IMG/VR virus record: IMGVR_UViG_3300007255_000001
Span: 1 to 64,000 of that record
Source of the DNA: a virus
Reading direction: 5' to 3' (one strand)
DNA length: 64,000 bases
Shown here: piece by piece, positions 26,501 to 47,435 of the stretch
Layout of the letters: the number at the start of each line of letters is the position of its first letter
How positions within the stretch are numbered: position 1 is the stretch's first letter
Notes under the pieces: model-generated
Told to the model about the DNA's origin: nothing
Seen by the model: the letters and a program-made list of their open reading frames with translations, nothing else
Databases searched by the model: none
Position numbers and translations under genes: made by a program

Positions 26501-26612
26501 GCGTGCATGGGCGGCACGCGTCAGGTTTCGCGAGGAGGGGCACCGGCGAGGGTCTCCGTCGCGATATGCTTCGACCAGCCGACATGGCCGCAGTCGAGAC
26601 AGCGGTACTCAA
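23514..26612 (-). CDS. Family A DNA polymerase with an N-terminal UDG-family-4-like domain and a 3'-5' exonuclease domain
   Basis: UDG-like motifs GEALG ... GRPFMGDAGGML ... HPSHL. Exo I motif SSDVET. Pol motif A LEVDYAGIESIQVG, motif B KHYNHAKAYG and motif C PIHDSLLLE. The start is uncertain (26612 or ATG 26585). Confidence 0.9.
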   Translation of the reverse strand: MSTAVSTAAMSAGRSISRRRPSPVPLLAKPDACRPCTLFQRGYGFAPADGPTSAWLLLVGEALGAVEAATGRPFMGDAGGMLTRLLNLLGWTRDAIRIHNVISCQPPNDWFDERAPWYREAIGYCPYLEHTLSEGHTVVVPMGATAIKRVLRLEHTKGVTVQNFHGTVHRDPTDRFWVVPTYHPSHLQRGAHNLIGTVLWDLQRAEEARSRGKPPDPGTLIIDPPVEWFRAWVATVVAARQQDPAAYPISSDVETPDKVGGRDEGELTADDQSFQILRQNVACHPDEGVTVPDEEPYRSLLRELYASPGAIWQWNRTYDFIRLVRASYLTEADSSKVVDLMWLAKVLQSDLPMGLGFWAPFYSTWGAWKHLAAIDPPRYGAIDGLQTHRIGFGLYHDLQQTGQMHYAFRHTHEYYVKVLRPAQLVGVKVDRQRLQVFKADLVTKARASLQALQLCVPETVCPLTPKGGLTKPPLADVLHVKATAFTRKGTPRAGKAVAEVKQELYAKAHVVDRVILKEVLVCRSCGAVDVARRHRCRDAADRTQPAGGPREAPDLVLDVASVHRWFWQEPFNPDSPKQILAYLKAKGHRPGRAKKSKTIESTDRETLERLERTAGDPFYTHTLDYRAVNKVKGTYAEGTERRLDREDRIHPVPTFRPSMMRLSYVDPNITNVVADKGVAAGGRATLAAGFRRCIVASPGCRLLEVDYAGIESIQVGVCAQDPEFIRNAKRGLHAALLSHVLGRPYDPSWPEAQIIGYLKELKQDERLAKPYDSCKHYNHAKAYGITIPGMVRQYPDLFPDEATAVKYTRFFRQLAPRVDDWQHAIQERASKEHYLGGAGDHPYTYRHWFWAVYVYKRLTRSQELRLIAKHQRAGTKPPVIYINDQAFRVGPGPDANRALAFKPQSIGAGNLKEAGLRLLGDPASPSYIGDCYFGRTPLRAPIHDSLLLEIPLTQWDRVCPIVFHEMQRPILEQPIPESWGLGSYLTIGISAKAGDDWAAMTPIPVPGYDAEWVSTPMEAEDEEDWSDLQRAV

Positions 26613-26796
26613 TCCGGCGGTCGGTGCAGCGGATGCCGCGGTGAGCGGTCTTCAGGGGTTTGGTCCGCCCGGTCGCGACGAGCCGGTAGCCGCGGCGGAA
26701 GTGCACCGCGTCGTGGAAGACGGAGTGGAGGCTCCGCTTGCAGCGGCCGCACTGGAGGTGGTACGGGTAGCCGGTGCCGCCGTTGGTCCCAGGCAT
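26521..26796 (-). CDS. Zinc-ribbon protein
   Basis: 91 aa with CGRC ... H ... and CLDCGH Cys pairs. Its 3' end overlaps the polymerase 5' end. Confidence 0.5.
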   Translation of the reverse strand: MPGTNGGTGYPYHLQCGRCKRSLHSVFHDAVHFRRGYRLVATGRTKPLKTAHRGIRCTDRRIEYRCLDCGHVGWSKHIATETLAGAPPRET

Positions 26797-27176
26797 CAGC
26801 GCTCAGCGAGCGACTGCCCGGTGTTCGGCACCATCTGGACACAGTGGTCGTCCCACAACTCGATCATCTGGAAATCCTTCGTCGCCGTGACTGGGAGGAC
26901 CGCTCCGAGGTGCTCTTGACACCACGCGACGATCAGCTCCCGCTGGTGAGCGGCGAACGCCTCATCGTCGACCGCGATCGTCGACGTCTGCCCACAGCAG
27001 CCGACTCGCGCGGTGAAGATCCGGACGTCCCGCCCGTCAGCAAGCCACGCCTTGACGCGCTCGATCATCCGCGGGATCGGGGCACCGACACGCCAGACGT
27101 CTTCCGGGATCCCTGACCATTCCGCCAGGACGCCGTCTAAGTCGACGCCAATCCACCCGTCCGGCCAGCCGCTCAC
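26796..27176 (-). CDS. HAD-superfamily phosphatase (5'(3')-deoxyribonucleotidase-like)
   Basis: The GTG at 27176 overlaps the upstream TGA (GTGA). HAD motif I is IGVDLDGVLAEW, with a later VRIFTAR motif. The longer track ORF start at 27383 was rejected. Confidence 0.55.
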   Translation of the reverse strand: MSGWPDGWIGVDLDGVLAEWSGIPEDVWRVGAPIPRMIERVKAWLADGRDVRIFTARVGCCGQTSTIAVDDEAFAAHQRELIVAWCQEHLGAVLPVTATKDFQMIELWDDHCVQMVPNTGQSLAER

Positions 27177-27463
27177 CAGTACCTCCGTCGGAAACTCCGA
27201 CTCCGCCGCCCCCCGGTCTTGGTCCCCGCCTCCTGGATGTTCGCCACCGCGCGGCGTTGCCCGGCCGTCACCGTCTGGTACTGCTCGACCGACTCCCGGA
27301 TGCCCATGAGCGTGTCGGCCGCCCACTCGAAGGCCGTGGTCGTCTCCAGCATCTCGTCGTTCTCGCGCGCGAAGGTGTACCACTCCGTCTCCCGAGGGTC
27401 CACCGGCTTCACCGGGCGGATCGGCTCGTCAGAGAGGTTCAGGTCTTCGAGGCGTTTGCCCAT
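27173..27463 (-). CDS. Hypothetical protein with N-terminal MGKRLEDLNLSDEP motif
   Basis: Internal ATG with GAGAGGAAG upstream, 96 aa. The N-terminal peptide resembles that of 39451..40113. Confidence 0.5.
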   Translation of the reverse strand: MGKRLEDLNLSDEPIRPVKPVDPRETEWYTFARENDEMLETTTAFEWAADTLMGIRESVEQYQTVTAGQRRAVANIQEAGTKTGGRRSRSFRRRYW

Positions 27464-28352
27464 TGGCGATCTTCCTCTCGTGGTTAAAGAGTGCAGGCGT
27501 CGTAGGCCCCTCTGGGCAGTGCTGTGCGAACAGGAGTCGAGGAGCGGTAGCGGCCTCGGCCGTGCCTGTGGTGTCAAAGGGCGCCCAGTACGTCTCGGCG
27601 TTCACCGCCCCGCCCCACTTCATCGCGTAGTAGGCGCGGCTCTGTAGCTCGATCTGCCGCCGGATCACCGCCGCCTCCGCCGCCGGCAGCGTCTTCAGCG
27701 TGTTCGAGGCGTAGTGCAGGTACGGCACGTTCACCGAGAAGATCCGCGCGCCCTCCCCCGCGAGGAGGAGCCGGCGGTGGTAGTCGAGATCCTCACAGAA
27801 GGCGGGGATGAAGCGCTCGTCGAAGGCGAAGCGCTCGTGACACGCGCGGCTGATCAGGAAGCAGGAGAAGTCGGGGCCGCCGAGGTGCATGGGGCGGCCG
27901 AGCCCGCGCTCGTCCGGCGCGGTGAGGAGGACGTCGGGGGTCGGGTGGTACGCAAAGTCCGCCTCGGTCACGCCGACCGCGGAGACGAAGAGCGCGTCGC
28001 TGTGCCCCATCACGCTACTGAGCTGGTAGACAGTGTCGGGGCGGAGTCGGACATCGTTGTTCACCACCAGCGCCTCACTCCCGCCCGCCTCCCAGACGAA
28101 CCGGAGTGCGCGGTTCCACGTCGCGGCGAGACTCGGGAGCGGGGGCTGATGTGACCAGATGAGGATCCGGTCGGGATACTCCTCGGCGAGCCGCTCCAGG
28201 TGCGCGCGGAAGGGATCGTCGACGCCTTGGTTGATCACGAGGAGGCGCGTCGGGATCGACTGCGCGAGGCAGTCGGCGATCGCGGCGGTGGTCTTCTCCT
28301 GATCGGCGAGGACGGGCATCACGATCCAGACGAGCTGCTCACTCTCACTCAT
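27429..28352 (-). CDS. Glycosyltransferase family 2 (GT-A fold)
   Basis: N-terminal VWIVMPVLADQEKTTAAIADCL ... LLVINQG ... ATWNRAL ... VVNNDV is the typical GT2 layout. Confidence 0.75.
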   Translation of the reverse strand: MSESEQLVWIVMPVLADQEKTTAAIADCLAQSIPTRLLVINQGVDDPFRAHLERLAEEYPDRILIWSHQPPLPSLAATWNRALRFVWEAGGSEALVVNNDVRLRPDTVYQLSSVMGHSDALFVSAVGVTEADFAYHPTPDVLLTAPDERGLGRPMHLGGPDFSCFLISRACHERFAFDERFIPAFCEDLDYHRRLLLAGEGARIFSVNVPYLHYASNTLKTLPAAEAAVIRRQIELQSRAYYAMKWGGAVNAETYWAPFDTTGTAEAATAPRLLFAQHCPEGPTTPALFNHERKIANGQTPRRPEPL

Positions 28353-28789
28353 AAGGCCACCACCGTAAACCGATCATCGAGTACCGGCTGCAGGATCGGG
28401 CGGACCTCGCGCGCCCAGTCCCGCCGGCCGTTATTGCACCCTGGCCGGGACAGCACCACCGCCGTCCAGCCCTCCACCTCGGTCAGCGCGGCCAATTCCC
28501 TCGCCGACTGCGCGATCAACTCCAGATCGGCGCGCTCGTTGTAGACATGCTTCACCGGGAAGCTCACCAACGGGACCCCGTCGCAGTTCCGATCGATGAT
28601 GCCGACGTGGTTGCCCTGCCGCTTCAGGAGCGCCCCGAGCGCGAGCCTCATCCCGAAGTAGCGTTGCGTCGCTTGCAGCGCGACCCCTCGCCCCATCACC
28701 GCCCGGCCATTCGCCTTGACCGTGCCGTTCGTGGTGATGCAGCGGGCATCGGCGGGGTAGGTCCAGAGATCGGCTAACTCTTCCCGCAT
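28349..28789 (-). CDS. Macro-domain-like protein (Macro_2-type, ADP-ribose binding/processing candidate)
   Basis: The ATG at 28789 has an ATGA overlap. Motif order ITTNGTVKANGRAVMGRGVALQ ... FPVKHVY ... ADLELIAQSAREL ... SRPGCNNG. Confidence 0.5.
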   Translation of the reverse strand: MREELADLWTYPADARCITTNGTVKANGRAVMGRGVALQATQRYFGMRLALGALLKRQGNHVGIIDRNCDGVPLVSFPVKHVYNERADLELIAQSARELAALTEVEGWTAVVLSRPGCNNGRRDWAREVRPILQPVLDDRFTVVAL

Positions 28790-29031
28790 CACCACTCCGG
28801 CGGCGCCGTCAGCCGCAGCTCCCACCTCGGGACCGTCCACCCGTGCGCCTTCGCCTGTGCCTTCCGCTCCGCCTGCGTATACCCGGCGGCATCGTAGTGC
28901 CCGCGCGCCACATCGAGCAGGAAGGTCCAACAGCCGACCCACACGCTTACGCAGCACCGGTGACAATGATGCGGCCCGGGCCAGCCGATCCCAGTCTCAC
29001 CGCAGCTCCCCGGCACCCTCCAGCCCTTCAC
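28789..29031 (-). CDS. Small Cys/His-rich protein
   Basis: The GTG at 29031 has a GTGA overlap with the upstream stop. 80 aa with SCGETG ... HHCHRCC. Confidence 0.4.
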   Translation of the reverse strand: MKGWRVPGSCGETGIGWPGPHHCHRCCVSVWVGCWTFLLDVARGHYDAAGYTQAERKAQAKAHGWTVPRWELRLTAPPEW

Positions 29032-29198
29032 AAGCGCGGTGGACGTCGGGTCACCTGCGCGTACACCGCGGCCAGGATCCCCACCGCGAGCGCCCCCGCC
29101 AGCCATCCGCCCCCCTCAACCGCCTGGGCGGCGCCGATCACCAGCAGGCCCCCGGCGATCAGCGTCAGCGTGAGGATCACGCCGGTCCGCAAGACCAT
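29028..29198 (-). CDS. Small two-TM membrane protein
   Basis: ATG at 29198 (alternative GTG at 29210). Hydrophobic segments VILTLTLIAGGLLVIGAA and WLAGALAVGILAAVYA. The stop is coupled by GTGA to the next gene. It overlaps 29116..29307 out of frame. Confidence 0.35.
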   Translation of the reverse strand: MVLRTGVILTLTLIAGGLLVIGAAQAVEGGGWLAGALAVGILAAVYAQVTRRPPRL

Positions 29199-29307
29199 GC
29201 ATCCTCCCACAGACCACGCAGTAGACCGAGCCGTCCGGCTTCGCCTCCAATAAGGTCAGGTCCTCGTTCCCGCAGTGTGGGCAGATCGGGACGAGCACCT
29301 CGGTCAC
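29116..29307 (-). CDS. Zinc-ribbon mini-protein
   Basis: The GTG at 29307 has a GTGA overlap with the methyltransferase stop. Motif CPHCG ... CVVCG. The true 3' end is uncertain because of the overlap with 29028..29198. Confidence 0.4.
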   Translation of the reverse strand: MTEVLVPICPHCGNEDLTLLEAKPDGSVYCVVCGRMHGLADRRDPHADADRRGPAGDRRRPGG

Positions 29308-30581
29308 GGGACGACCGGCATCGGCGCCGCCTCCAGCCCACGTGATCCCTGGGTCACCACCGTCACGCGCGGGAGCGGCAGCAGCAGGGATCCGCCCGCC
29401 GCCAGGTACGCCGCCTCCCGTTTCGCGAACGCGTCGGCGAACTGCCACGCGCCGACCAGCAGGGTGTGCGGGGGGTCGGCCCGCCCGGTCCCCTCACTCA
29501 CAATCGGGATCCCGGTCGCCGTCGTCCGCCCAACCTTCTCGGGGCTGCGCTCCCACGCCTGTCGGACGAGCGCGCCGTCGATGCCGCAGTACTGGAGGAG
29601 GGTATTCGCCTTGGTCGATGCGGCGTAGAGATCCACCGTGACGCCTGTGTCGTGGAGCGCATCGAGCGCGGCGCGGATCTGCCGACGCGTCTCGCCGACC
29701 TGCCAGGCGAAGCGCTCCAGGGTCGACCAGTGATCGCAGCCGGCTTCGAGATCGAGCTGCCGACGGACGCGCGCGCCCTCGCGGTGGTGCCCGTGCTGCA
29801 CGTAGCAGCGGAGGCTCCCGCCGTTGATGTCGCGGATCTCACAGTCGATCACCTTCAGGTTGTGCGGGCGGAGGAGCTCGCTGAAGCTCCGGAGCGAGTA
29901 GTAGACCAGGTGCTCGTGACAGAGGTTGTCGAAGGCGGTCTGGCGCACCATCGACCAGAGATCCTGGAACTGGACGACCCAGACGCCGTCGGGGTGGAGG
30001 AGGCTGTTCACGGCCGAGACGAACACATGCGGATCATCTGAGCCGTAGACCATCGCGATCGTGGTGATCACCTTCGCACGGCCGGCCAGATCGAGGCGCG
30101 GCGCCCGCAGGGTCGTCCATCCGAAGTAGTCGGGGATCAGCCATTCGCAGTGCGCGGCCAGCGCCGGCTGGAGGTTGTCCGCCGGCTCGAACGCCACCCG
30201 CGGGATCGTCCGCGTCGTCGCGTGATCGCGATAGCACGCCAGCAAGGTCCCGTCGTTCGCGCCCACATCGATCACCACATCCCGCGCCGGGTTGATCGTC
30301 ACCTGCTGCAGCGCCTGGGTCACCACGTCGGCGAGCTCCGCCTGCATGACCTCGTTCACGCCCGAGCGGTACCAGTACTGCCGGCGGTAGAGGACGTCGG
30401 GCTCGACCGTGTGCCGGAGCTGCACCAGTCCGCAGAGGCGGCACAGGGCGAAGTCGATCGGGACCGCGTCGGTCGGCGGATCCCCCGGGGCGGGGAAGGT
30501 CGAGAGCGCGAGCCGGCCGAGCGCGAGCAGCGTGTCGAGCGGGCCGCCGCAGGCGCGGCAGTCGCGCGGTTGATAGATCAT
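29304..30581 (-). CDS. NDP-hexose C-methyltransferase-like enzyme (TylCIII/Methyltransf_13+14 type)
   Basis: The ATG at 30581 has an ATGA overlap. N-terminal zinc motif CRACGG ... CRLCGLVQL, then YWYRSGVN, SAM motif VIDVGANDG and a C-terminal C-methyltransferase-type domain. Confidence 0.65.
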   Translation of the reverse strand: MIYQPRDCRACGGPLDTLLALGRLALSTFPAPGDPPTDAVPIDFALCRLCGLVQLRHTVEPDVLYRRQYWYRSGVNEVMQAELADVVTQALQQVTINPARDVVIDVGANDGTLLACYRDHATTRTIPRVAFEPADNLQPALAAHCEWLIPDYFGWTTLRAPRLDLAGRAKVITTIAMVYGSDDPHVFVSAVNSLLHPDGVWVVQFQDLWSMVRQTAFDNLCHEHLVYYSLRSFSELLRPHNLKVIDCEIRDINGGSLRCYVQHGHHREGARVRRQLDLEAGCDHWSTLERFAWQVGETRRQIRAALDALHDTGVTVDLYAASTKANTLLQYCGIDGALVRQAWERSPEKVGRTTATGIPIVSEGTGRADPPHTLLVGAWQFADAFAKREAAYLAAGGSLLLPLPRVTVVTQGSRGLEAAPMPVVP

Positions 30582-31249
30582 GGGCGCTTCACCAAGCAGA
30601 GCGACGCGAATGAATAATCGTAGACGTGGGCGCCGTGGTAGTCCCAGTCGCACTCCCCGAGCGACTGGAACTGCTGGCGATTGAGCGTTGCACGGGTGTA
30701 TTGCCACCAGAGCCGGTTGAAGATCCGCTTCCGCATCCAGTGGAAGTGATACGTGTCGGTCGGCCAGTCGCCAGGGGCGGGACCATCGCCGTCGCAGCAG
30801 TCCATCGTGAGGAAGAGCAGCCCGCGCGGTGCGACTAGACAGCTCAGGTGGTAAAGGAACCGATCGAGATCGCTGACGTGCTCCAGGACCGAGAGACAGA
30901 AGACACAGTGCGCCAGCTCCGTCCCCGCGGTGACGAAGCGCTCCAGCGTGTACGGGAGGTGGTGCGGCCCCTCCGCCTCGGTGACGGTCGGATCAACGAT
31001 CCGCGCGTTGACCAGCAGGTGAAACGGGCTGCCGGCGCCCCCCACATCGTAGACGAGGGCGCCGTAGAGGCCGACCTCGGTCTGCCAGCGGTAGTAGGCA
31101 TCGAGCGCGAGGGCGTACTCCCAGCGCCGCAGCGGGTGCTGCTCCCGCGCGCCAGGAGCACCGGTGAAGTACTCGTCGACCTGTGCCAGCTCCTTCGGGA
31201 GGTGCGCGAAGTCGGTGTCGGCGAGCGTCTTGGTGAGGGGGAGCGTCAC
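30578..31249 (-). CDS. Class I SAM-dependent methyltransferase
   Basis: The GTG at 31249 has a GTGA overlap. Motif I is VYDVGGAGSPF, with a later CLSVLEHV motif typical of Methyltransf_11/23-like enzymes. Confidence 0.65.
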   Translation of the reverse strand: MTLPLTKTLADTDFAHLPKELAQVDEYFTGAPGAREQHPLRRWEYALALDAYYRWQTEVGLYGALVYDVGGAGSPFHLLVNARIVDPTVTEAEGPHHLPYTLERFVTAGTELAHCVFCLSVLEHVSDLDRFLYHLSCLVAPRGLLFLTMDCCDGDGPAPGDWPTDTYHFHWMRKRIFNRLWWQYTRATLNRQQFQSLGECDWDYHGAHVYDYSFASLCLVKRP

Positions 31250-32247
31250 GCGAGGAGCCTTCGGTATAACTGCGCGTAGTTCGCGCCTAGCTTCGTCCAG
31301 GAGTCCTGCTGCGCGAGCGCCACCATCCCGGCATCGACCCGCCCGAGGATCGTGTTCGAGAGCCGCTGCTGGAACTCCTCGAAGGTCCGGCACCACCGCA
31401 CGTACTTGTTGGCGATCGGGTCCGCAAAGAGCGCCCGGAACTGCCGGCAGGTCTCGAACGCGAAGACCGGTTTGCGCGCTGCAATCCCCTGGAGCACCGC
31501 GCCGCTCTGTCCCGAGTTCGCGCAGGTATAGCAGAAGGCGGTCGCGTCACAGCCGGCGAGCAGCTCAACGACCTGATCACGCGGCGTGAACTCCGGGATC
31601 ACCCAGAGATCAGGGTGGCGACTCTGCCAGTCGACCACTTGTTCGGTCGTCGCGCCGGGGGCGATCAGCAGGAGTGCCCAGCCGACCTCGCGCGTGAGAT
31701 CGCAGAGCCGCTCGTAGTTCTTCCACGGGAAGGCGAAGCCGACCGTCCCGAGCACGGGCTGCGCGTCCCACCCCTTGAAGCACCACCGTAGCGTTCGCCA
31801 GTACGGATCCGGCGGGTGGCTCCCGTGGAAGGTAAACTGCATCGGCGATCGCGGCGGCGGGACGCCCATCCGCCAGTAGATCGCGTTCGGCAGGCCCTCG
31901 CAGGGCTCATGCACGATGAAGGCGTCGGCGGCGTCGCACAACTCACGTGAGAGATCGTCGGGCGGGTGCTCCCCGAAGGTGTCGTGGAAGGTGATGACCA
32001 CCTTGCGGTGCTTCGCCACCTGCCGGACCTTCTCCGGCGTCCAGCGCGAGTGGAGCGCGCGGTGATAGTTCAGGTGCAGGAGATCCCAGCCGTGCCGGTA
32101 GGGATCAGCGGCGGCGGGATCGAGCGCCTCCGGCGTCGGGTGGATCGCAATCCCATGATCCGCCGCCTCCACCGCCGCCTTCAAATAGGCGGAGTGCTCC
32201 GCGATCCCGCACGCGGTGTCCCACGTCGTCGCGAGCAGGACGTTCAC
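31246..32247 (-). CDS. GT-B fold glycosyltransferase (group 1/GT4-like)
   Basis: 333 aa with a GTGA overlap at the start. N-terminal MNVLLATTWDTACGIAEHS and a C-terminal acceptor/donor half with SGQSGAVLQGIAARKPV. Confidence 0.6.
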   Translation of the reverse strand: MNVLLATTWDTACGIAEHSAYLKAAVEAADHGIAIHPTPEALDPAAADPYRHGWDLLHLNYHRALHSRWTPEKVRQVAKHRKVVITFHDTFGEHPPDDLSRELCDAADAFIVHEPCEGLPNAIYWRMGVPPPRSPMQFTFHGSHPPDPYWRTLRWCFKGWDAQPVLGTVGFAFPWKNYERLCDLTREVGWALLLIAPGATTEQVVDWQSRHPDLWVIPEFTPRDQVVELLAGCDATAFCYTCANSGQSGAVLQGIAARKPVFAFETCRQFRALFADPIANKYVRWCRTFEEFQQRLSNTILGRVDAGMVALAQQDSWTKLGANYAQLYRRLLA

Positions 32248-32633
32248 ACCTTCTCCTTCGCGTCGCTGTCACCGGCATCCTTGTTGATCGTCTGAATCAG
32301 CTCCGCCCGCCGATCGTTCATCGCCTGCAAGTGGAAGGCGAGATCCATGATCGTCACGAGGTCCTCGGGGCTGTACCCGGTCGGCCGCGGCACGCGCCAC
32401 GCCCGCAACTCGTCCTCCCCATGCCAGATCGCCGCGTTCACCGCCGCCAGCTCCAGCACCCCATCGAACCACTTCCCGTTCAAGGTCCTTGAGCGGATCT
32501 GCGCCCGGAGCGAGGCCTGCTCGGATTCGAAGTGCGCGGTGTCTTTCCCACTCTCACGCGCGTAGAGGATCTTCAGCGCCAAGATCGACAGGCGGTCGGA
32601 GATCTCGCCGGCGCCGACGTTGAGGAGTTTCAT
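32244..32633 (-). CDS. Small helical protein resembling the DUF6165 family that accompanies sugar-modifying genes
   Basis: 129 aa with N-terminal GAGEISDRLSILALKILYA followed by a helical body. The family assignment is from memory of the consensus and is not verified. Confidence 0.4.
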   Translation of the reverse strand: MKLLNVGAGEISDRLSILALKILYARESGKDTAHFESEQASLRAQIRSRTLNGKWFDGVLELAAVNAAIWHGEDELRAWRVPRPTGYSPEDLVTIMDLAFHLQAMNDRRAELIQTINKDAGDSDAKEKV

Positions 32634-33484
32634 GCGATCGCCTTCGCCGGCCGCCGCGCTAGGGCCGCCTCGATCGCGTCCCCGAGGTGCCGCGCGTCAA
32701 AGGTCGGTAGACCATCCCCGCCCCGGACCAGCGTCACCCGCGGCCCATCCTGTCCATACGGCCAGAAGATCGGATGATGGCGCGCCGCCGCCGGCTCGAC
32801 GATCACGGCGGGCGTCCCCATCGCACACGCCAGGACGTGCAGCGCGGAGCAGCACCCCACGAACACGTGCGCCTCGGCGAGCCACGCCGCGGCGGCGATC
32901 CAGGTCACGATCACGGGCGAGGCCGTCTCCGCTGAGGACCACCGGGGCGACGTGCTCAGATTCACGATCGCGCGCGAGGGGGCGAACCGCACCCAGAGCA
33001 ACTGGTACAGCCCGTACTTCAACTCGAACCACTCGTCGGTGAACCCGACCACGATTTCGGCCGGGTAGATCCGATAGGGGGCGCGAATCCACGGGCGATC
33101 CAGCCCGAGGTCGAGCGGGAGCGCCTCGTGCAGCACGCGGTACTCCGTGATCGCCGTCTGCCAGACTTCGATCGGCAGGGAGGGCGCCATCGGCCACTGG
33201 CGGTACCCGAGGTGGAAGACCTGATCGTAGTCGGCGCCGTCTACCACACTCGGCGGCTGCCACGGGGTGATCGGGGCGGTCTGCTGGACCTCCCAGCTCA
33301 GGAGCCGGATGACCCGCCCGAGGTAGGGCTGATGCCGGAGGAGCGCCCTGAAGCCGTCGGGGCCGTAGCGCTCGGAGAGGGCCAGATCCACCGGCTGATC
33401 GAACGCCTCGGCGATCAGCCGCACCGTCGGGAGCGCCCAGAGCGTATCGCCGAACTTCCCGGGGAAGGTTACTAGAATACGCAC
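32630..33484 (-). CDS. Glycosyltransferase family 9 (heptosyltransferase-like)
   Basis: N-terminal MRILVTFPGKFGDTLWALPTVRLI and C-terminal GCCSALHVLACAMGTPAVIV match the GT9 layout. ATGA overlap at the start. Confidence 0.65.
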   Translation of the reverse strand: MRILVTFPGKFGDTLWALPTVRLIAEAFDQPVDLALSERYGPDGFRALLRHQPYLGRVIRLLSWEVQQTAPITPWQPPSVVDGADYDQVFHLGYRQWPMAPSLPIEVWQTAITEYRVLHEALPLDLGLDRPWIRAPYRIYPAEIVVGFTDEWFELKYGLYQLLWVRFAPSRAIVNLSTSPRWSSAETASPVIVTWIAAAAWLAEAHVFVGCCSALHVLACAMGTPAVIVEPAAARHHPIFWPYGQDGPRVTLVRGGDGLPTFDARHLGDAIEAALARRPAKAIA

Positions 33485-33951
33485 GCGATTGGCCTCATCG
33501 TGAATGGGCGAGGAACTGCTCCCGCGGCACGTTTACGCAACAGAGTACGGATCCGACCGCAGGCCCGACATTGACGCTGCCTTCCTGATCGCGTTGTCGA
33601 CCAGAGCGTGTTCGCGTCGTCGAACGGATGACCGGATGGACAGTGTGTTTTCCGAGCATTGATCGCTGCAGGAGCGATCGGGCTTCGGAGGGTATTCACA
33701 CGTTGTGTTGCAGGGTCACAGTGTTGTTCGTCTGGACGGATACAGTGTCGTACGCGGCAGACGTGATCGAGGGTGAACCCCTCCGGGATTGGCCCTTTTA
33801 CGATCTCGTACGCGACGCGGTGAGCGAGCATCGTCTCCCCCTCCAACCAGAATTTCCCGTAGCCGGCTGGTGTCAATCCTGCAACCCAGAGCCAGCAACT
33901 AGGGGTAATCCGTACCTTCGACCAGAAGCGATCGGTGCAGAGGATCCTCAT
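33472..33951 (-). CDS. HNH endonuclease
   Basis: The ATG at 33951 has an ATGA overlap. Motifs AHRVAYEIVKGPIPEGFTLDHVCRVRHC and later Cys pairs CPSGH ... CRAC. The locus is locally AT-richer than its neighbours. Confidence 0.75.
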   Translation of the reverse strand: MRILCTDRFWSKVRITPSCWLWVAGLTPAGYGKFWLEGETMLAHRVAYEIVKGPIPEGFTLDHVCRVRHCIRPDEQHCDPATQRVNTLRSPIAPAAINARKTHCPSGHPFDDANTLWSTTRSGRQRQCRACGRIRTLLRKRAAGAVPRPFTMRPIACVF

Positions 33952-34469
33952 GGCTGATAGCTCCACGGCAGCAGCGCCGCCGAGCCTTCGATGACACACC
34001 GACGGGCGGCCTCGTCGGTGAGCAGATGCGCGGAGAAGGGGAGGCCGTCCTGGAGCGCCCGCGCGAGCCGATGGTTCCCGTCAATCAGGACGTAGTGGAT
34101 GGCCCCGTCCCAGACCAGCGGGGCGGCGATCCCCGGGAGGCTCGGGTCAACAAAGGGGAGTTTCGCCGGCTCCCAGCTATTGCGCTGCGCAATGTTCTGC
34201 ATCTCGGCTGGCTCGATCGGGACCGTGGTGCGGATCTGCCCCGCGGCGACACACTCCTGCGCGAGGGTGACGTCCCACCGGACGAAGCCGACATTCGGGA
34301 CGTCGTACCGGAAGGCCTCATGCTTGACGTGGGTGATCTGCAGCGTCCAGTCGACGTCATCGAGGAAGCGATGGCAGGCCCCGCAGTAGCGTTGTGTCAC
34401 ATCGTTCCGGTTGTAGCTGACCCGCCCACAGAAGGGACACGTCAGCGAGGGGAGGATCTCGGGGCTCAT
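33948..34469 (-). CDS. Zinc-ribbon + ParB/Srx-like domain protein
   Basis: N-terminal CPFCG ... CGAC. C-terminal YVLIDGNHRLARAL is a ParB N-terminal-domain-type DGxHR motif. Confidence 0.5.
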   Translation of the reverse strand: MSPEILPSLTCPFCGRVSYNRNDVTQRYCGACHRFLDDVDWTLQITHVKHEAFRYDVPNVGFVRWDVTLAQECVAAGQIRTTVPIEPAEMQNIAQRNSWEPAKLPFVDPSLPGIAAPLVWDGAIHYVLIDGNHRLARALQDGLPFSAHLLTDEAARRCVIEGSAALLPWSYQP

Positions 34470-34482
34470 CGGTCACTCCAAT

Positions 34483-35970
34483 TCACAACCACGGCCTCAG
34501 TCTCGGGTCCGCCACACACCGCTCGATCAGCGCCGCCTCACTCCCCACCACCCGCAGCCCCGCCCCGGTGCGGGCGCGGGAGAGCGCCACATACAACATC
34601 CCAGGCGTCTTGAAGAAGGCATCACGGATGTTCACCTGCACCCGATCGAGACTCAGCCCCTGCGACTTGTGGACCGTCGACGCATACGCCACTCGGAGGG
34701 GCATATAGGCGATCCACCCGACGATCTCGAACTTCCCGTTTTCGGTGATGAGTTCGGTCTTCCCCTGGTCGCGCAGCTCGCGGCGCCGGGCGGCGTCACA
34801 CGGGATGAGCACCTCCCGCCGGACATAATGTACCTCGACCTCCGCCCCGGTGCGCTGCAACTTCACGATCGCGGTCTGCTCATCCCCGTCCACCACCTCC
34901 CCGAGATCCCCGTTCACATACACAAACGGTTGCGGCGGCGGTCCTTCTCGCCGGAGGTTCGCGAGGATCATCACGAGCGCCCCGACCTTCAGGTGCAGGC
35001 GCAGCGGAATCCCCCAGGTCTGCGGCGGCTTGTCGGGGTTGCCCCACTCCGCCCGCTGCTTCCCCTCCCGGTGCGATTCGTAATAGAGGTCGGTCCCCTG
35101 CACCCGCGTGAGCCGGATCCAGTTATACCGATCGACCGTCGCGTTCTTCGCCATGAGCGTCGGGCCTTCGAAGGCGTCATCGGTGTCGGCGTGGATCCCG
35201 CCGTTCGCCCGGAGATACGTCAGCACCGCCGCGCCGTTCCCGAGGCGCGCCTGCCGGAGCGCCTCGATGAAGGCGGGGTCGGCCTGCCGTCGGATCTCGC
35301 TCAGGGTGATCGTCTGCTCCGCGAACCGGCCCCACTCCGGACTCTCCCACGCAAAGGCCCCGTTCACCGGCGGGAGCTGCGCGAAGTCCCCCACGAGCGT
35401 CAGGCCCATCGCCGGTGGCGCGGCCTCGTCTTCCTCGGTCCACGTCCCCAGGACATACCCGCGGCCGTTGACCTCCTCGATCCCCTTGACCAAATAGGTC
35501 AACTGGTCCCCGTCCAGCATGCTCACCTCATCGAGCACCAGCCGTTTTACTCCCGCCCGCCACAGCCGGCCCAGGCGCGCCGTCAGAAACCCGTTCGTAT
35601 AGCTCTCCTGGAGACTCTTCGTATCGAAGTAGCCGAGGAGCGCATTGATCGTGGTGCCCCCGCAGTTGATCGCGGCGATCCCAGTCGTGGCGCAGAGCTC
35701 TAGTCCTCCTCGTCCCCCGTCTCGGGCCGCCCACTCCTTGACGGCGAAGGTCTTCCCCGATCCCGCGGCGCCGCAGAGGAAGCAGAAGTCGGGGACCGGA
35801 TCGGGCCAGAGGCGGACGGGGTCGGCGACCCGCTCAGCGTCCGCGCCGCCTGCACGCCCTCCGTGAACGCCCGGAGCGCCGGGGAGGGCGGTGTCGAGGT
35901 CGGCGCCGTTGGGTCTCCCGTCCGCCGCAGCAGCCGGCGCCGGATGACCCGCCCCTGATACGCCCGCCAC
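34483..35970 (-). CDS. Pif1/RecD-family SF1 helicase (5' end unresolved)
   Basis: Walker A CGAAGSGKTF, Walker B LVLDEVSMLD, and the C-terminal STVHKSQGLSLDRV ... LYVALSRAR signature. No ATG/GTG/TTG lies just upstream of Walker A. The track ORF runs to 36132, but the codon bias there favours another frame. Confidence 0.8.
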   Translation of the reverse strand: MAGVSGAGHPAPAAAADGRPNGADLDTALPGAPGVHGGRAGGADAERVADPVRLWPDPVPDFCFLCGAAGSGKTFAVKEWAARDGGRGGLELCATTGIAAINCGGTTINALLGYFDTKSLQESYTNGFLTARLGRLWRAGVKRLVLDEVSMLDGDQLTYLVKGIEEVNGRGYVLGTWTEEDEAAPPAMGLTLVGDFAQLPPVNGAFAWESPEWGRFAEQTITLSEIRRQADPAFIEALRQARLGNGAAVLTYLRANGGIHADTDDAFEGPTLMAKNATVDRYNWIRLTRVQGTDLYYESHREGKQRAEWGNPDKPPQTWGIPLRLHLKVGALVMILANLRREGPPPQPFVYVNGDLGEVVDGDEQTAIVKLQRTGAEVEVHYVRREVLIPCDAARRRELRDQGKTELITENGKFEIVGWIAYMPLRVAYASTVHKSQGLSLDRVQVNIRDAFFKTPGMLYVALSRARTGAGLRVVGSEAALIERCVADPRLRPWL

Positions 35971-36047
35971 GCGAGCCGCATCACCGCCAGCGTGATCAGG
36001 GCCGCCAGAATCGCCAGCAGGAGTGCCACGCGTTCGTCTGTCAGCAT
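35700..36047 (-). CDS. ORF with an N-terminal TM helix overlapping the helicase 5' region (possible frameshift partner)
   Basis: The ATG at 36047 gives MLTDERVALLLAILAALITLAVMRLAW. Third-position G/C bias supports this frame down to about 35830, after which the helicase frame takes over. Confidence 0.35.
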   Translation of the reverse strand: MLTDERVALLLAILAALITLAVMRLAWRAYQGRVIRRRLLRRTGDPTAPTSTPPSPALRAFTEGVQAARTLSGSPTPSASGPIRSPTSASSAAPRDRGRPSPSRSGRPETGDEED

Positions 36048-36147
36048 GTCCGCCTCCTCCGTCTACTCCGTCCTGAATAGTACGTACGGGCTCGTGTGTG
36101 AGTCTGAGATCGGACGCGACCGGGAGCGGCACCTGTGGGATCAGGAC

Positions 36148-37014
36148 TCACACCCGCAGCGGGAGCACGTCCCGGAACGCCTCATAGCCGATCTGGTGCG
36201 CCTGCTCCCAGAACCCGAAATCGCCGCCGGGGGTCTGCGCCTTGGCCCACGCCTGATAGCCCGGATCGCCGACCGCCGTCTGCCCGCCGTAGTGCCGGCA
36301 CCGGACTGGGAGATACCACGCCTCCCAGCCGGCCCGCGCGACGAGACAGCCGAGCGCGCCGTCGTAGAAGTGGTGCACGAAGCCGAGATTCTGTAGGGCG
36401 CTCCAGGGCCGTAGGGTGTCAGACGCCACCTGCCGAATCGTGTTGAACGGTGAGCCGTACGCGTGCCCCAGCCAGAACTCACGCCGCCCGATCTGGCTGA
36501 ACCCATCCAGACACACCACCCGCTCCGCCAGCAGGCTCCGCAGCCCATGCGTCTCGGCGTCGACGAGGTTGCTCCGGAAGCCCACCCGGGCGAGCTGCAT
36601 GGGGGTATACGGCGTGACATACAGATCCACGGCGCCCAGGCCGATCGCCCCGCCAAAGCCCGCCAGGCCCATCTGCGGCACCCGCTGGAAATAGGTCTGA
36701 ACTTTCTCGTCCCACCCGTGCTCCTGGATCTCCAGGTCGTCGTGGAAGCAGGCGATTACGTCGTAGGGCTCGGGCTCGCGGGCGCTGGCCGCCAGCGCAG
36801 CGTCGACGCCTTTGCGGAACGCCGGCACCGATCCCTGGTAATCCTCGGCGTAGAGCCAGAGAGTCGGCTGCGTGCCGATCTCGACGCGCTCGGGCCGGGT
36901 ACAGCCGTTCACGACGATGAACAGCCGGAGCGGCTGGCTGGCGCGCTCGACCCAACTCGTGAGGCAGCGGCGCGCCCGCTCCACATTGGTCGTTGCCGTG
37001 ACGATTGCGAGCAT
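36148..37014 (-). CDS. GT-A-like glycosyltransferase candidate
   Basis: 288 aa with N-terminal MLAIVTATTNVERARRCLTSW ... LFIVVNG ... CFHDDLEI (DxD-like). Confidence 0.45.
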   Translation of the reverse strand: MLAIVTATTNVERARRCLTSWVERASQPLRLFIVVNGCTRPERVEIGTQPTLWLYAEDYQGSVPAFRKGVDAALAASAREPEPYDVIACFHDDLEIQEHGWDEKVQTYFQRVPQMGLAGFGGAIGLGAVDLYVTPYTPMQLARVGFRSNLVDAETHGLRSLLAERVVCLDGFSQIGRREFWLGHAYGSPFNTIRQVASDTLRPWSALQNLGFVHHFYDGALGCLVARAGWEAWYLPVRCRHYGGQTAVGDPGYQAWAKAQTPGGDFGFWEQAHQIGYEAFRDVLPLRV

Positions 37015-37358
37015 TAGCGCTCCTGATCTCGGCTGGGCACCGGCACCGCCTCCAGCATCTTCACGGGGCTCGGCCCGGCTTCCTCCGCGGTCCGGACCCG
37101 GATGAACTCCGCATTCGGCTGCCCGCGGGTCGCCAGAAAGCTCGCGAACGCGCCGACGTGCACGAAGAGCTGATTCGCCGGCAGGTTCGGGTCGAGCGCC
37201 GCCTGAATCTTCTGTACGCGGAAGTAAATCGGCCCCCGCACATTCAGGATGATCTCGTCGCCTTCCTGCAGTGGCCGGCCGCGGGCGTCGAGGGTGGTCT
37301 GGTCCAACTCCATCGGAAACTCCTGACTCGCCGGATTCAATCGGGCGGCGCGGCCCAT
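37014..37358 (-). CDS. Hypothetical protein
   Basis: 114-aa ORF. Both ends overlap neighbouring genes by 1 nt (TGATG at the 5' end, TAATG at the 3' end). Confidence 0.5.
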   Translation of the reverse strand: MGRAARLNPASQEFPMELDQTTLDARGRPLQEGDEIILNVRGPIYFRVQKIQAALDPNLPANQLFVHVGAFASFLATRGQPNAEFIRVRTAEEAGPSPVKMLEAVPVPSRDQER

Positions 37359-37633
37359 CAGCTTCGACTCGGGTTGTTTCCCGGCCCCGTCACGCTCACG
37401 TGATCGACGAGCTGGTACTCACTGCGGGTCAACTCCGGGTACTGGTCAATCGTCGCGATCAGGAAATCCCGGATCGTGCGGAGGTGGTGTCCGTGGAAAT
37501 GGACGACGTACTGGCCGCACACGGGGCAATCGATCGCAATGTCGACGACGACGAGGCGACCGCCCGCCCCGGGATACTCGATCATCACCGAGCGGCAATC
37601 CACGCGCGCTTGGTGCTTCTCAGGTTCGCTCAT
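37358..37633 (-). CDS. Small Cys/His protein
   Basis: The ATG at 37633 has an ATGA overlap with the GT4 stop. 91 aa with CPVCGQYVVHFHGHH. The 525-aa track ORF upstream of this ATG was rejected. Confidence 0.5.
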   Translation of the reverse strand: MSEPEKHQARVDCRSVMIEYPGAGGRLVVVDIAIDCPVCGQYVVHFHGHHLRTIRDFLIATIDQYPELTRSEYQLVDHVSVTGPGNNPSRS

Positions 37634-38790
37634 AACCCCGCCTGAATCCAGCTCCGCCACCGCGGCCAGAGCGCGTCCCAACTCAGATGCGCCACCGCGC
37701 CACGGCAATAGGCCGCCGCAGTCGCCGCCCCCACCTGCTGCACCCACTGCAGCACCCGCTCGATCGCATTCGCGACGTCCTCGGGCCGGAACACCGGCCG
37801 CTGCAGCGCGTAGATTCCCTCCAGTCGCACCTCGCGCACGGGAAAGCGCCACTCGATCTTCGGGACGAGTTCCTGGCCGCCCCCGAACTCTCCATGGACG
37901 ACTGGGGTGCCACTCGCCAGACTCTCGACGATCGGGTAGCCGAACCCTTCGCCGAGCCCAGGGGCGACCGTCACGGCGCAGCGCTGATAGAGGAGTGCGA
38001 GCTCGCGATCCGTATACGTCTTCGTACTCACCGTCACCCGCCGCCCCAGCCCGCAATCCTCGACGAGCTGCACGATGCTCCAAGCCTTCACCAGGACGTC
38101 GGTGTGCAGCCAGCCGTAGACCGGATAGCCCCGAGCCTTCAACTCCGCGAGCGCCCCGAAGAACAGACTCAGATCCTTCCGCGGCTGGTTCGTGGCGACG
38201 CAGCCGATCACCAGATCGCCCTGCTTCACCTGCGGGCCGAGCTGCGCGGTGACCCACGCCTCTTCCTCGCCGCCGGCGATTGGGCGGTAGCTCTCCAGGT
38301 CGAGCCCGTGCGGGAGATAGCTCACCGCGTCGTCCCGCCGGGTCTTTACAATCGTGCTGGCCCACCGCCCGTACGCTACGACGCGATCCACTATCGCAAT
38401 CGCCTCCCCGGCCGGCCCGCCGATCGACCCGACCCGGTTGGGCGCATCGATCGCCGGGTAGCTCCAGATCCGCACCGGGAGCGTCGTCCGCTGGTACGCC
38501 GCGAGCCGCGCCGGATCCCAGATCAGCCAGAGCACTCCAGGCTGCCGCTGGAACGTGTCCGTCCAGCACGCCTCCACGTACGCCGCTCCCCAATCGTCGT
38601 TCCGCTCCATCTCGCCCATCGGGAGGTGTGGCCATGCTCGCCACCCGGGGAGGGGTGGCCCGCCGACCGACGCGAGCTCGATGGGCAGATCGCTCTCGTG
38701 CATCCGCTGCCCGAGATCCCGGAGGATCCGCCCGAGTCCGGTCGCTTCCTGCGGGCCATCGCCGACGAGGAGGAGCGGGGTCCGGATCAC
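37630..38790 (-). CDS. Glycosyltransferase family 4 (GT-B, retaining type)
   Basis: 386 aa with the C-terminal signature GLGEGFGYPIVESLASGTPVV (E-x7-E). GTGA overlap at the start. Confidence 0.75.
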   Translation of the reverse strand: MIRTPLLLVGDGPQEATGLGRILRDLGQRMHESDLPIELASVGGPPLPGWRAWPHLPMGEMERNDDWGAAYVEACWTDTFQRQPGVLWLIWDPARLAAYQRTTLPVRIWSYPAIDAPNRVGSIGGPAGEAIAIVDRVVAYGRWASTIVKTRRDDAVSYLPHGLDLESYRPIAGGEEEAWVTAQLGPQVKQGDLVIGCVATNQPRKDLSLFFGALAELKARGYPVYGWLHTDVLVKAWSIVQLVEDCGLGRRVTVSTKTYTDRELALLYQRCAVTVAPGLGEGFGYPIVESLASGTPVVHGEFGGGQELVPKIEWRFPVREVRLEGIYALQRPVFRPEDVANAIERVLQWVQQVGAATAAAYCRGAVAHLSWDALWPRWRSWIQAGL

Positions 38791-39450: not shown

Positions 39451-40113
39451 TTACGGTCTGATGTTGTCGAGATTCGCGAAGCACCGCAGGAGCGCGCCGC
39501 ACTGGCAGGTAATCTGGGTCGTCACGTTCCCGCTCGCATCCTTCCCGCCGTTGGGGACGTCTTCCTGATAGTACGCGTTGTCGCAGCCCTTCCGTCCTTC
39601 GACCTCGCGGACCTGCCCGGCGGGGTCGAGCACGCGGATGTTGCGATCCTTGCTGCATTTCCAGGAGTAGCGGATGTCGGCGCCAAACTCCTTGCCGGCC
39701 TGCTGCTTCATCAGCTCGATGTAGGCTTTGTTGCTCGGGGGCTTCTGTTTGAACCCGAGGGCGCGGAGGATGTAGTCCATGTCGCTGGCGATGACGCCGC
39801 CCTTCCCCCGGTTGCGCTCCTCGTTGGAGACGCGGGTTTCGAAGGGCTCATTGTTGTAGCGTCCGCCCACCGACTGCACGATCTGCAGCGGGTGGTCGCG
39901 ATCGAAGATGGCCCGCACGCGCTGGGGTGGCACCTTGCTCGGGGTGTCATAGACGTCCCAGATCGTGTTCAGGTCCGTCGGTAGCTTGAACCGGAAGGGT
40001 CCGGGCTGCGGCGGTTCGCGGAAGGTCCCGAATTCCGGCAGGTCGGAGAGGTCCTGCCCGGCGGTGGGCAATGGTTCATCCTTGAGTCCGAGCTCTTGTA
40101 AACTTTTTCCCAT
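39451..40113 (-). CDS. Hypothetical protein with N-terminal MGKSLQELGLKDEP motif
   Basis: 220 aa with AAGGAG 8 nt upstream of the ATG and a C-terminal Cys cluster (C ... CQC ... C). Confidence 0.6.
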   Translation of the reverse strand: MGKSLQELGLKDEPLPTAGQDLSDLPEFGTFREPPQPGPFRFKLPTDLNTIWDVYDTPSKVPPQRVRAIFDRDHPLQIVQSVGGRYNNEPFETRVSNEERNRGKGGVIASDMDYILRALGFKQKPPSNKAYIELMKQQAGKEFGADIRYSWKCSKDRNIRVLDPAGQVREVEGRKGCDNAYYQEDVPNGGKDASGNVTTQITCQCGALLRCFANLDNIRP

Positions 40114-45789: not shown

Positions 45790-45793
45790 GGCT

Positions 45794-47325: not shown

Positions 47326-47345
47326 ATTCCACGAAGAAAACGGGG

Positions 47346-47419: not shown

Positions 47420-47435
47420 AGGAGAGTTGGCCCAT

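Follow-up and report, generated by a model that had tools for sequence, protein, structure and literature searches.

The lipopolysaccharide (LPS) core loci of the waa type combine glycosyltransferases (GTs) of the GT9, GT4, GT2 and GT-A kinds without a flippase or a polymerase. In phages with glycosylated DNA, GT-A and GT-B enzymes like MshA/BshA and LPS enzymes put mono- to trisaccharides of hexose, N-acetylhexosamine and heptose on DNA (Pyle et al., bioRxiv 10.1101/2023.12.21.572611), and the published clusters depend on a thymidylate-synthase homolog (ThyS) or on a C5-methyltransferase together with a TET-like oxygenase (bioRxiv 10.1101/2023.12.21.572611, 10.1101/2025.06.16.659550); ~65% of GT-bearing viral contigs are without a base-modifying partner (Pyle et al., bioRxiv 10.1101/2023.12.21.572611). 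Virion proteins are glycosylated in the mycobacteriophages Che8, Corndog and Myrna (Freeman et al. 2023, as summarised in PMC12363180 and PMC12619734), and giant viruses carry clade-specific rare-sugar toolkits (PMC10117803), among them chlorovirus A064R/A111-114R/A075L and the clusters of the Megavirinae (PMC10117803, PMC9614988). Here we analyse a 64,000-nucleotide (nt) stretch of phage DNA (IMG/VR record IMGVR_UViG_3300007255_000001, positions 1 to 64,000; hereafter the window) in which genes for five GTs and a nucleoside-diphosphate (NDP)-hexose C-methyltransferase (CMT) are interleaved with replication genes. We conclude with good confidence that these genes form one coherent glycosylation pathway carried by a long-resident cassette.

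Phage GT islands as such are already known; what is new is the joining of five transferases to a branched-sugar CMT, the size and coherence of the set, and the extreme divergence of three of the five transferases. New, too, are the insertion in two blocks around a helicase gene, conservation at the level of the family A DNA polymerase (PolA) within an uncultured clade, and clade-specific swaps of the sugar chemistry. With the DNA hypermodification clusters (T-even alpha/beta-GT; Pyle et al., bioRxiv 10.1101/2023.12.21.572611; RB69/DLP3 arabinosyl-5-hydroxycytosine, bioRxiv 10.1101/2025.06.16.659550) the locus shares several GT-A/GT-B enzymes of LPS, teichoic-acid and MshA type as well as adjacency to polymerase and helicase genes; some of those clusters also include accessory sugar-nucleotide enzymes. 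It differs from them in that the island has no ThyS, TET/5mYOX or C5-methyltransferase gene and only a distant MazG-like open reading frame (ORF) for pool control, and in having five transferases and a CMT whereas the reconstituted DNA pathways make only mono- to trisaccharides. The mycobacteriophage system, as described in those summaries, likewise uses soluble phage GTs, which act in the cytoplasm on new virion proteins and are dispensable, occurring in some relatives only; the present set is larger, includes a CMT, lies in a replication operon and is known from its genes alone. Giant-virus clusters offer the same conjunction of sugar-nucleotide tailoring, methyltransferases and many GTs, and a toolkit that varies by clade (here C-methyl/FkbM versus DegT plus acetyltransferase), but they belong to eukaryotic viruses with genomes >300 kb whose glycans were determined experimentally, whereas here the chemistry of a 70-kb tailed phage is read from gene content. 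The waa-type loci, finally, have the same soluble mix of GT9, GT4, GT2 and GT-A enzymes and the same lack of flippase and polymerase, but the island is phage-borne and part of a lytic replication operon, its TylC3-type CMT is no waa component, and all its members have diverged too far to match Pfam's GT9 model or the LPS models curated in NCBIfam.

The cassette consists of two blocks, A and B, flanking the helicase gene in the middle (DNA-metabolism) operon, which is read leftward:

37630-38790, minus strand: GT4 glycosyltransferase (GT-B fold), first gene of block A
36148-37014, minus strand: GT-A-fold, PF13712-like glycosyltransferase, last gene of block A
34483-36132, minus strand: superfamily 1 Pif1/RecD-like helicase (Pfam AAA_30 5.9e-14, PIF1, UvrD_C_2), a backbone replication gene between blocks A and B
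32630-33484, minus strand: GT9-like (heptosyltransferase-like) GT-B glycosyltransferase, first gene of block B
32244-32633, minus strand: small DUF4254-like helper
31246-32247, minus strand: divergent GT-B (GT4-like) glycosyltransferase
30578-31249, minus strand: class-I S-adenosylmethionine (SAM) methyltransferase (MT2)
29304-30581, minus strand: NDP-hexose 3-C-methyltransferase of the TylC3/TcaB9/KijD1 family (CMT)
27429-28352, minus strand: GT2-like glycosyltransferase (GT-A fold), last gene of block B
23514-26612, minus strand: PolA fused to a uracil-DNA glycosylase (UDG) domain (Pfam UDG 1.1e-18, DNA_pol_A 9.2e-23), at the downstream end of the coupled block
22663-22650, minus strand: terminator-like hairpin directly after the last operon gene, the sole GC-rich minus-strand terminator match in 22.5-42.4 kb

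A first reading of the window, made by a model from the letters and ORF translations (the sequence-only reading), had predicted five GTs, and all five are supported, although Pfam directly confirms only two enzymes of the island, the GT4 and the CMT, the four other transferases being too divergent for profile libraries. The GT4 matches Pfam Glycos_transf_1 (1.6e-10) and Glyco_trans_1_4 (2.1e-10) and the glycosyltransferase family PHROG 2170 (2e-24), and its top NCBIfam match is MshA (1.7e-9). For the GT-A-like and GT9-like proteins the support comes from AlphaFold2 (AF2) models searched with Foldseek. The GT-A-like protein, used as a profile, has no match in the PDB; its model (mean predicted confidence, pLDDT, 83.5) retrieves majastridin (2qgi, 1.7e-8), SpsA, a Leptospira GT, ppGalNAc-T2/T3 and POMGnT1, its HDD motif of DXD type (residues 91-93) does not vary, and ~15% of its 532 homologs carry PF13712. 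The GT9-like protein has no Pfam match even at E<=10 and no PDB match, either singly or with a 56-sequence profile, but its model (pLDDT 94) adopts a GT-B fold whose top PDB structures, at probability 1.0, are WaaC (2gt1, 5.9e-7, TM 0.61), a Veillonella GT9 (3tov), WaaF (1psw) and TibC (4rap); its neighbours in BFVD are viral proteins annotated GT9, RfaF or Aah/TibC. None of its >400 homologs is annotated; G12 and D13 are invariant, at what may be the position of the catalytic Asp13 of WaaC. Because Pfam Glyco_transf_9 does not match, we call the protein GT9-like and not a GT9 member.

Homologs and weak direct matches together support the remaining two transferases. The divergent GT-B has its own Pfam match to Glyco_trans_1_4 at E 0.025 only, and a few of its 544 homologs carry PF13692 (Glyco_trans_1_4) or PF13579 (Glyco_trans_4_4) and the JGI name 'glycosyltransferase involved in cell wall biosynthesis'; it matches nothing in the PDB, singly or as a profile, and hhalign detects no match between its family and the GT9-like family. 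The GT2-like protein matches the galactosyltransferase family PHROG 29879 (1.3e-11), its profile finds 3bcv (3e-3) and GalT1 (5hea) in the PDB, the protein matches Pfam Glycos_transf_2 at 0.022 with the whole Pfam profile covered, and the homolog in locus L023 has PF00535.

The CMT had been recognised from the letters alone, and that assignment is borne out over the full length of the protein. Pfam (7e-31) divides it into Methyltransf_13 (residues 8-65), Methyltransf_23 (79-245) and Methyltransf_14 (252-404), and in the PDB it matches, at full length, TylC3 (4rv9, 1.9e-41, residues 7-413), KijD1 and TcaB9, with 5t64 and 3ndi among the structures. It thus has the three-domain architecture of the TylC3/TcaB9/KijD1 enzymes of actinomycete antibiotic pathways (full-length matches at E 1e-36 to 2e-41), together with their zinc-binding CxxC pairs (residues 8-11, C8/C11, and 47-50, C47/C50), and differs from them in being phage-encoded. 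The second predicted SAM methyltransferase, MT2, has weak profile matches (Pfam Methyltransf_23 1.5e-4, NCBIfam UbiG 4e-4) and also stands, with its SAM-binding motif DVGGAGSPF conserved in island-bearing relatives; it is a probable sugar O-methyltransferase. The helper, labelled DUF6165-like in the sequence-only reading, at best matches Pfam DUF4254 below the cut-off (4e-5), as faintly as its homolog in L023; it usually lies just after the GT9-like gene.

These genes belong to an uninterrupted minus-strand series of 28 ORFs (43813->22678) whose junctions leave gaps of at most 45 nt and include thirteen 4-nt ATGA/GTGA and four 1-nt overlaps; with the hairpin at its end, this bears out the tight coupling and leftward direction that had been claimed for the operon. 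Within it, promoter-like sites do not outnumber those in shuffled sequence. The ten enzyme ORFs that had been named are all intact at the coordinates given for them, with coding-type GC at third codon positions (GC3) of 0.83-0.91. The further claim that the genes should be co-expressed stoichiometrically with replication over-reads the start/stop overlaps.

To follow the cassette through its relatives, the UDG-PolA was used as a query, giving 17 IMG/VR relatives with PolA identities of 45-69%, and the GT9-like family as another, giving 80 metagenomic loci; gene order was compared in locus L001 and 24 further loci, none shorter than 11 kb. More than 30 related ~70-kb contigs share the core order GT4–GT-A–[helicase]–GT9–GT-B–CMT–GT2–PolA. 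In L001 and the 24 loci the full order is ATPase, a 220-aa protein of unknown function, GT4, (114-aa ORF), GT-A, helicase, GT9-like, (DUF4254-like), GT-B, (MT2), CMT, GT2-like, (96-aa protein), PolA, so that the co-occurrence with PolA that had been proposed as a check is seen, and shared order persists down to ~43% PolA identity. Among the 24 loci, homologs of the GT-B occur in 23, of the GT2-like protein in 19, and of the GT4 (mean identity 55%) and the helper in 18 each; the GT4 is also kept in L021, a relative with alternative sugar genes described below. The helicase sits between GT-A and GT9 in ~17 of the 24 and is also kept in relatives without the island. Mean amino-acid identities to the window are 42-55% for the glycosylation genes and 53-54% for helicase and PolA, which indicates that the former are constrained as much as the latter. 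The N-terminal domain of the PolA belongs to the uracil-DNA-glycosylase superfamily, and this fusion is conserved clade-wide.

The island has GC 0.676 against 0.677 for the rest of the window, codon usage correlates with r = 0.955, and the restriction sites that the genome avoids are purged from it as well (1 observed versus 18 expected, P = 3e-7). A recent horizontal import, which we had considered, is rejected on these grounds, and the agreement in all three respects points to long residence.

The same interval also holds genes that come and go among relatives, and in the window four of them are seen:

33948-34469, minus strand: zinc-ribbon protein ('ParB-like') with a C-terminal 'DGNHR' motif
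33472-33999, minus strand: HNH endonuclease (Pfam HNH_3 3e-9)
28349-28789, minus strand: DarG-like macro domain (PHROG 335 1.6e-14; NCBIfam DarG 4.6e-7)
26796-27176, minus strand: small HAD-superfamily-like phosphatase (PHROG 1238 8.7e-6 and PHROG 415 9e-5, over a DLDGV, DxDG-type, motif)

The ParB-like label is unconfirmed: Pfam and PDB return an N-terminal zinc ribbon only, no ParB nuclease or N-terminal domain is matched in Pfam, PHROG or PDB, DGNHR is merely reminiscent of ParB, and a homolog exists in L001 but in none of the 24 further loci. The HNH gene, which the sequence-only reading did not mention, overlaps the gene before it at the latter's end, with 33951 as its probable real start, and has homologs at differing positions in L018, L021, L080, L081, L086, L090 and L118; this variability and a GC3 of 0.61, against 0.83-0.91 in its neighbours, mark it as probably a mobile homing element. 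The macro domain was seen only in L001, L008, L016, L076 and L086. Its similarity to DarG is distant, at 29 bits against a cut-off of 250 in NCBIfam, with DarG structures (5m3i, 4e-3; 5m31, 0.09) as its sole macro-type PDB matches and no Pfam Macro match. DarG removes ADP-ribose from DNA. The macro protein is therefore probably concerned with counter-defence rather than sugar chemistry, and may, as a predicted DNA de-ADP-ribosylase, counter DarT-type ADP-ribosylation of DNA. The HAD-like gene rests on its weak PHROG matches and motif, finds no support in Pfam, NCBIfam or the PDB, and occurs in ~9 relatives at varying positions, so that the phosphatase label stays weak and unconfirmed and the gene probably lies outside the pathway. 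Dam-family DNA N6-adenine methyltransferase genes were seen inside the island in some relatives (L001:15680-16378, L016:6365-6997, also L018 and L095), inserted between the CMT and the GT2-like or macro genes.

One might read the whole interval in this light, as a hot spot of unrelated accessory genes with several independent GTs acting on different targets and no single pathway. The sporadic HNH, Dam, DarG-like macro, HAD-like, cpYpsA and zinc-ribbon genes and the integrases of L009 and L060 fit such a picture, as does the splitting of the cassette by the helicase. We nevertheless consider it quite improbable: the six core genes (GT4, GT-A, GT9, GT-B, CMT and GT2) are inherited together and in the same order in essentially every well-covered island-bearing genome, and they are lost together. 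All six are missing from L007, L011 and L014, where an integrase lies at the locus and what remains is an MT2 relic of ~190 aa (30% identity; L007:6370-6942, L011:6232-6816, L014:6243-6809) from which DVGGAGSPF is deleted. Such a relic indicates secondary loss of the cassette, which is thus dispensable. The ParB-like, macro, HAD, HNH, Dam, cpYpsA and integrase genes, which come and go, are by the same comparison passengers of the hot spot and probably not pathway members. The proposal of a multi-step pathway interleaved with replication genes is accordingly well supported and conserved in >30 relatives, probably without the macro, ParB-like and HAD proteins.

Loss is not the only fate of the cassette. 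In the more distant relatives L021 (3826-5998) and L022 (2637-4561) the helicase-PolA locus holds a DegT/EryC1 aminotransferase (5e-71), a hexapeptide acyltransferase and a cpYpsA SLOG protein, with a GT4 upstream; this predicted aminosugar toolkit replaces the C-methyl cassette (block B) at the same place. Island-bearing relatives add FkbM methyltransferases in 13 loci and SDR epimerase/dehydratases in 4, among them L023, where the gene is directly upstream of the GT9-like gene, and L072, where it is beside it. Additions of FkbM and exchanges of block B suggest selection for glycan diversity. An unrelated lineage of 38% GC (L005:2831-14893, IMGVR_UViG_3300017971_000280) encodes an SDR epimerase, a GDP-mannose-type 4,6-dehydratase (6e-139), a DegT protein, a CMT of the same type and GT2- and GT4-like genes, a predicted gene content by which virus-encoded branched-sugar pathways recur across lineages. 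Taken together, the genes and their variation establish, as a prediction from sequence, a scheme of nucleotide-sugar tailoring followed by multi-step glycosyl transfer in which the sugars have diversified between lineages.

In the pathway that we propose, an NDP-4-keto-6-deoxyhexose made by the host would be C-methylated by the CMT to a branched-chain sugar nucleotide, from which the five soluble, Leloir-type transferases would go on to assemble a short, methylated hetero-oligosaccharide in the cytoplasm of the lytically infected cell, drawing on the C-methylated donor and on host donors that may include ADP-heptose. The last step, and the least certain, would be transfer to a newly made virion protein (capsid, tail or fibres), giving a glycan coat by analogy with mycobacteriophages and giant viruses. 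The choice of acceptor has to be weighed against the rest of the genome, whose features include the following:

60340-61657, plus strand: lysis cassette, with a 2-TM (two-transmembrane-segment) holin-like ORF, an SLT endolysin (60573-61121) and a 166-aa protein with an N-terminal signal-/lipobox-like LQASC
19760-22516, plus strand: SLT-domain virion protein of the structural module
47436-47951: MazG-like pyrophosphatase

The window has a GC content of 68%. Its plus-strand structural and lysis module occupies 58-64 kb and 0-22.5 kb, with the large terminase gene running past the window end, and the minus-strand block from 43.8 to 22.7 kb comprises the replication genes and the sugar cassette. 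Proteins identical to those of the window lie on JGI/ENA contigs of up to 70.5-70.7 kb, which puts the genome at ~70 kb; judged from position, the ~6.5 kb of the ~70.5-kb genome beyond the window probably hold the rest of the terminase gene and the portal/head region. The window lacks tRNA genes and has no close relatives among GenBank phages by DNA, protein matches being remote only. The phage belongs to an uncultured lineage of ~70 kb that is widespread and abundant in soil and groundwater. The lysis cassette, with the LQASC protein as a mere candidate spanin, hints at a Gram-negative host, and the host is probably not an actinobacterium.

Several points bear on a virion or other phage protein as acceptor, a reading that is left as the most plausible and that we favour tentatively, rating it somewhat short of an even chance. 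The GTs are soluble phage enzymes whose genes lie in a lytic operon. No island protein has membrane segments, two hydrophobic stretches of the GT9-like protein being Rossmann-core elements in its AF2 model, and searches of 185,579 GTDB species genomes with GT4 and then GT-A alignment queries gave no prophage copy; these points favour the virion or another cytoplasmic macromolecule over the envelope. Protein is favoured over DNA by the lack of a starter enzyme and by T7-like avoidance of restriction sites, both detailed below, and by the structural neighbours, which include many protein O-glycosyltransferases for the GT-A-like enzyme and the protein heptosyltransferase TibC for the GT9-like one. 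What remains beyond virion, DNA and envelope falls to other or multiple acceptors.

A number of observations weigh against a virion acceptor. The likeness to protein GTs is not specific, since GalNAc-transferases are over-represented in the PDB. Unlike in the mycobacteriophages, no Ser/Thr-rich C-terminal acceptor tails are present on the 22 plus-strand proteins of the structural module, in which capsid and tail-tube genes are not confidently identified. No structural gene or domain co-varies with the island across the window, four island-bearing genomes, three island-less genomes and one alternative-sugar genome, a comparison of low power because the tail-fibre region is hypervariable (structural modules in the relatives were reached by an alignment-based query after two single-protein scans came back empty). 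Pfam screens of the window reveal no 4,6-dehydratase or ketoreductase, so the CMT must lean on host enzymes for its chemistry, although such partners, familiar from the TylC3-type pathways, do occur in L023, L072 and L005. The cassette is, moreover, co-transcribed with replication genes and not with the late structural operon. It is embedded between helicase and PolA and coupled to them in their operon, and it shares its hot spot with DNA-directed counter-defence (the DarG-like macro domain; Dam in L001, L016, L018 and L095). Known DNA-glycosylation clusters also use LPS- and teichoic-acid-type GT-A/GT-B enzymes and adjoin polymerases, helicases, epimerases and secondary GTs (bioRxiv 10.1101/2023.12.21.572611).

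These last points speak for phage DNA as the acceptor, with an attachment point made by an unrecognised or host enzyme or with direct transfer to base or backbone; the oligosaccharide would sit on a subset of bases and give partial or motif-specific protection from nucleases. The MazG-like pyrophosphatase can be added on this side, but we hold the idea to be a serious yet unlikely rival. Among the window's non-structural ORFs of at least ~110 aa, Pfam and PHROG detect neither a starter enzyme (thymidylate-synthase homolog PF00303, TET_JBP/5mYOX or C5-methyltransferase) nor a deoxynucleoside monophosphate kinase or deaminase. Six-frame phmmer searches of the window with T4 gp42 and the M6 ThyS homolog give no match at E<=10, T4 alpha/beta-GT and gp56 are also negative, and no extra conserved gene able to serve as starter exists in island-bearing relatives. 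The earlier statement that the window has no hydroxymethylase or thymidylate-synthase-like starter therefore holds. In addition, TarP, a PDB match reported for DNA-acting GT-A enzymes, is outside the top 50 for the GT-A-like model, and Pyle et al. deem GT contigs with no base-modifying enzyme nearby less likely to act on DNA (bioRxiv 10.1101/2023.12.21.572611).

Restriction-site avoidance provides a further, more limited test. Four palindromic hexamers are nearly absent from the window (observed/expected: CAGCTG 0/20.6; GGGCCC 0/24.3; CTCGAG 3/40.7, at 9134, 25609 and 55814; TGGCCA 1/11.1, at 38629). All contain C and/or T, and together they number 4 against ~97 expected. Depletion of at least 85% affects 4 of 37 testable palindromic hexamers and 0 of 2,152 non-palindromic ones; the same test yields 0/27 for T4, 7/23 for T7 and 16/30 for M6. 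Palindrome-specific avoidance of this strength resembles T7 and not T4, and complete T4-style glycosylation of C or T in this genome is unlikely. M6, whose thymidine hypermodification is only partial, nevertheless shows the same avoidance, so the test rules out complete, T4-like modification only and is compatible with base hypermodification of a partial or motif-specific kind. We had at first taken site avoidance as strong evidence against DNA modification; that argument was withdrawn after the M6 control. In other island-bearing relatives the avoided palindromes are partly others (GAGCTC, TGCGCA, CCGCGG), a pattern that points to host type II restriction systems, differing by lineage, as a force shaping these genomes. 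For CTCGAG, avoidance is equally strong in relatives without the island. The original idea of DNA bases as acceptor is thus weakened in its complete form and stands as a rival in its partial one.

A bolder version is a long shot: that the cassette glycosylates a nucleic acid, or a component bound to the replisome or to DNA, with no ThyS or TET starter at all. The sugar could go straight onto a canonical base, the backbone or a DNA end, or a small conserved protein (the DUF4254-like one, the 114-aa ORF or MT2) could make the attachment point. The sugar would then be extended to a methylated, branched oligosaccharide on a fraction of sites, and such partial modification would explain both the clade-wide wiring into the replication operon and the persistence of site avoidance.

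The host envelope, which we think slightly less likely than DNA, would be the target if the enzymes remodelled LPS core, lipooligosaccharide (LOS) or a lipid-linked glycan during infection by way of host flippase or export; this would block superinfection or keep progeny from adsorbing to cell debris. The resemblance of the GT mix to waa-type LPS-core loci and the LPS heptosyltransferases WaaC and WaaF as top structures for the GT9-like protein lend themselves to this explanation. So do the PHROGs class of the matched families ('moron, auxiliary metabolic gene and host takeover'), the fit of endolysin, holin-like ORF and signal-/lipobox-like protein to a Gram-negative host, and the tyrosine integrases of relatives, by which the clade may be temperate. 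The cassette is, however, coupled to lytic replication genes and, having no promoter or terminator of its own, should be silent in a lysogen. Components of seroconverting modules (GtrA/B/C, acyltransferase, Wzx, Wzy) and membrane proteins are lacking in the island, and, beyond the absence of prophage copies, >1,400 homolog clusters and the 80 metagenomic loci are all on contigs of at most 74.3 kb. The exchange of existing surface LPS within one lytic cycle would presumably be slow and its benefit small, and the conservation of the cassette is that of an essential replication gene and not of a moron. Seroconversion of lysogens, which the sequence-only reading had kept as a fallback, is for the same reasons of lytic coupling, missing membrane proteins and missing prophages unlikely.

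Besides these genes the operon contains several small ORFs:

37358-37633, minus strand: 91-aa ORF, intact, joined to its neighbours by ATGA and 1-nt overlaps; JGI calls the gene on L024
37014-37358, minus strand: conserved 114-aa ORF between GT4 and GT-A-like genes, with no family match
28789-29106 and 29116-29307, minus strand: two small intact ORFs, the second with a homolog in L012
27173-27463, minus strand: backbone protein of 96 aa, just upstream of HAD/PolA, in island-bearing and island-less relatives

Three of the spans that had been taken for single small unknowns hold stop codons, and each is really two or three ORFs (28789-29307 being two). Homologs of the 114-aa ORF occupy the same position in L001, L072, L075, L076, L079, L086 and L118. 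The proteins of 27173-27463 and 39451-40113 (both minus strand), otherwise unrelated, begin with the near-identical peptides MGKRLEDLNLSDEP and MGKSLQELGLKDEP; the motif, MGKxLxxLxLxDEP, is kept in the homologs of L001 and L012, and this shared N-terminus may be a docking or recognition motif.

Further upstream, the minus-strand ATPase ORF at 40159-42084 is a Sak4-like P-loop protein by a weak match, and its last ~150 residues are extremely Pro/Thr/Ala-rich and not conserved in relatives; the tail could be a mucin-like linker or plain high-GC low-complexity sequence. The true start of this gene is uncertain, JGI calling 541 aa. The region 44074-49497, of lower GC (62-65%), has genes for a helix-turn-helix protein, an integrase-like ORF, the MazG-like protein and an AAA_25 ATPase; the integrase-like match, in a 487-aa ORF, is weak (Pfam 2e-3, below the cut-off). 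In relatives, tyrosine integrases with good scores lie instead between helicase and PolA; those of L009 and L060 are within the glycosylation island.

The cassette supplies GT9-like, GT-B and GT-A enzymes so divergent that current profile libraries miss them, and its six core genes, a compact set conserved over deep divergence, are amenable to heterologous reconstitution. If DNA were the acceptor, glycosylation with no starter enzyme would be new chemistry. If the acceptor is the virion, the finding would extend phage virion glycosylation, so far demonstrated in a few mycobacteriophage clusters, beyond the actinophages, and with a far richer chemistry that takes in five transferases, O-methylation and a branched C-methyl sugar. 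One would then also have to ask what purpose a glycan coat serves outside animal hosts, where it may confer resistance to proteases or desiccation, mediate adhesion, or help the phage evade bacterial surface traps.

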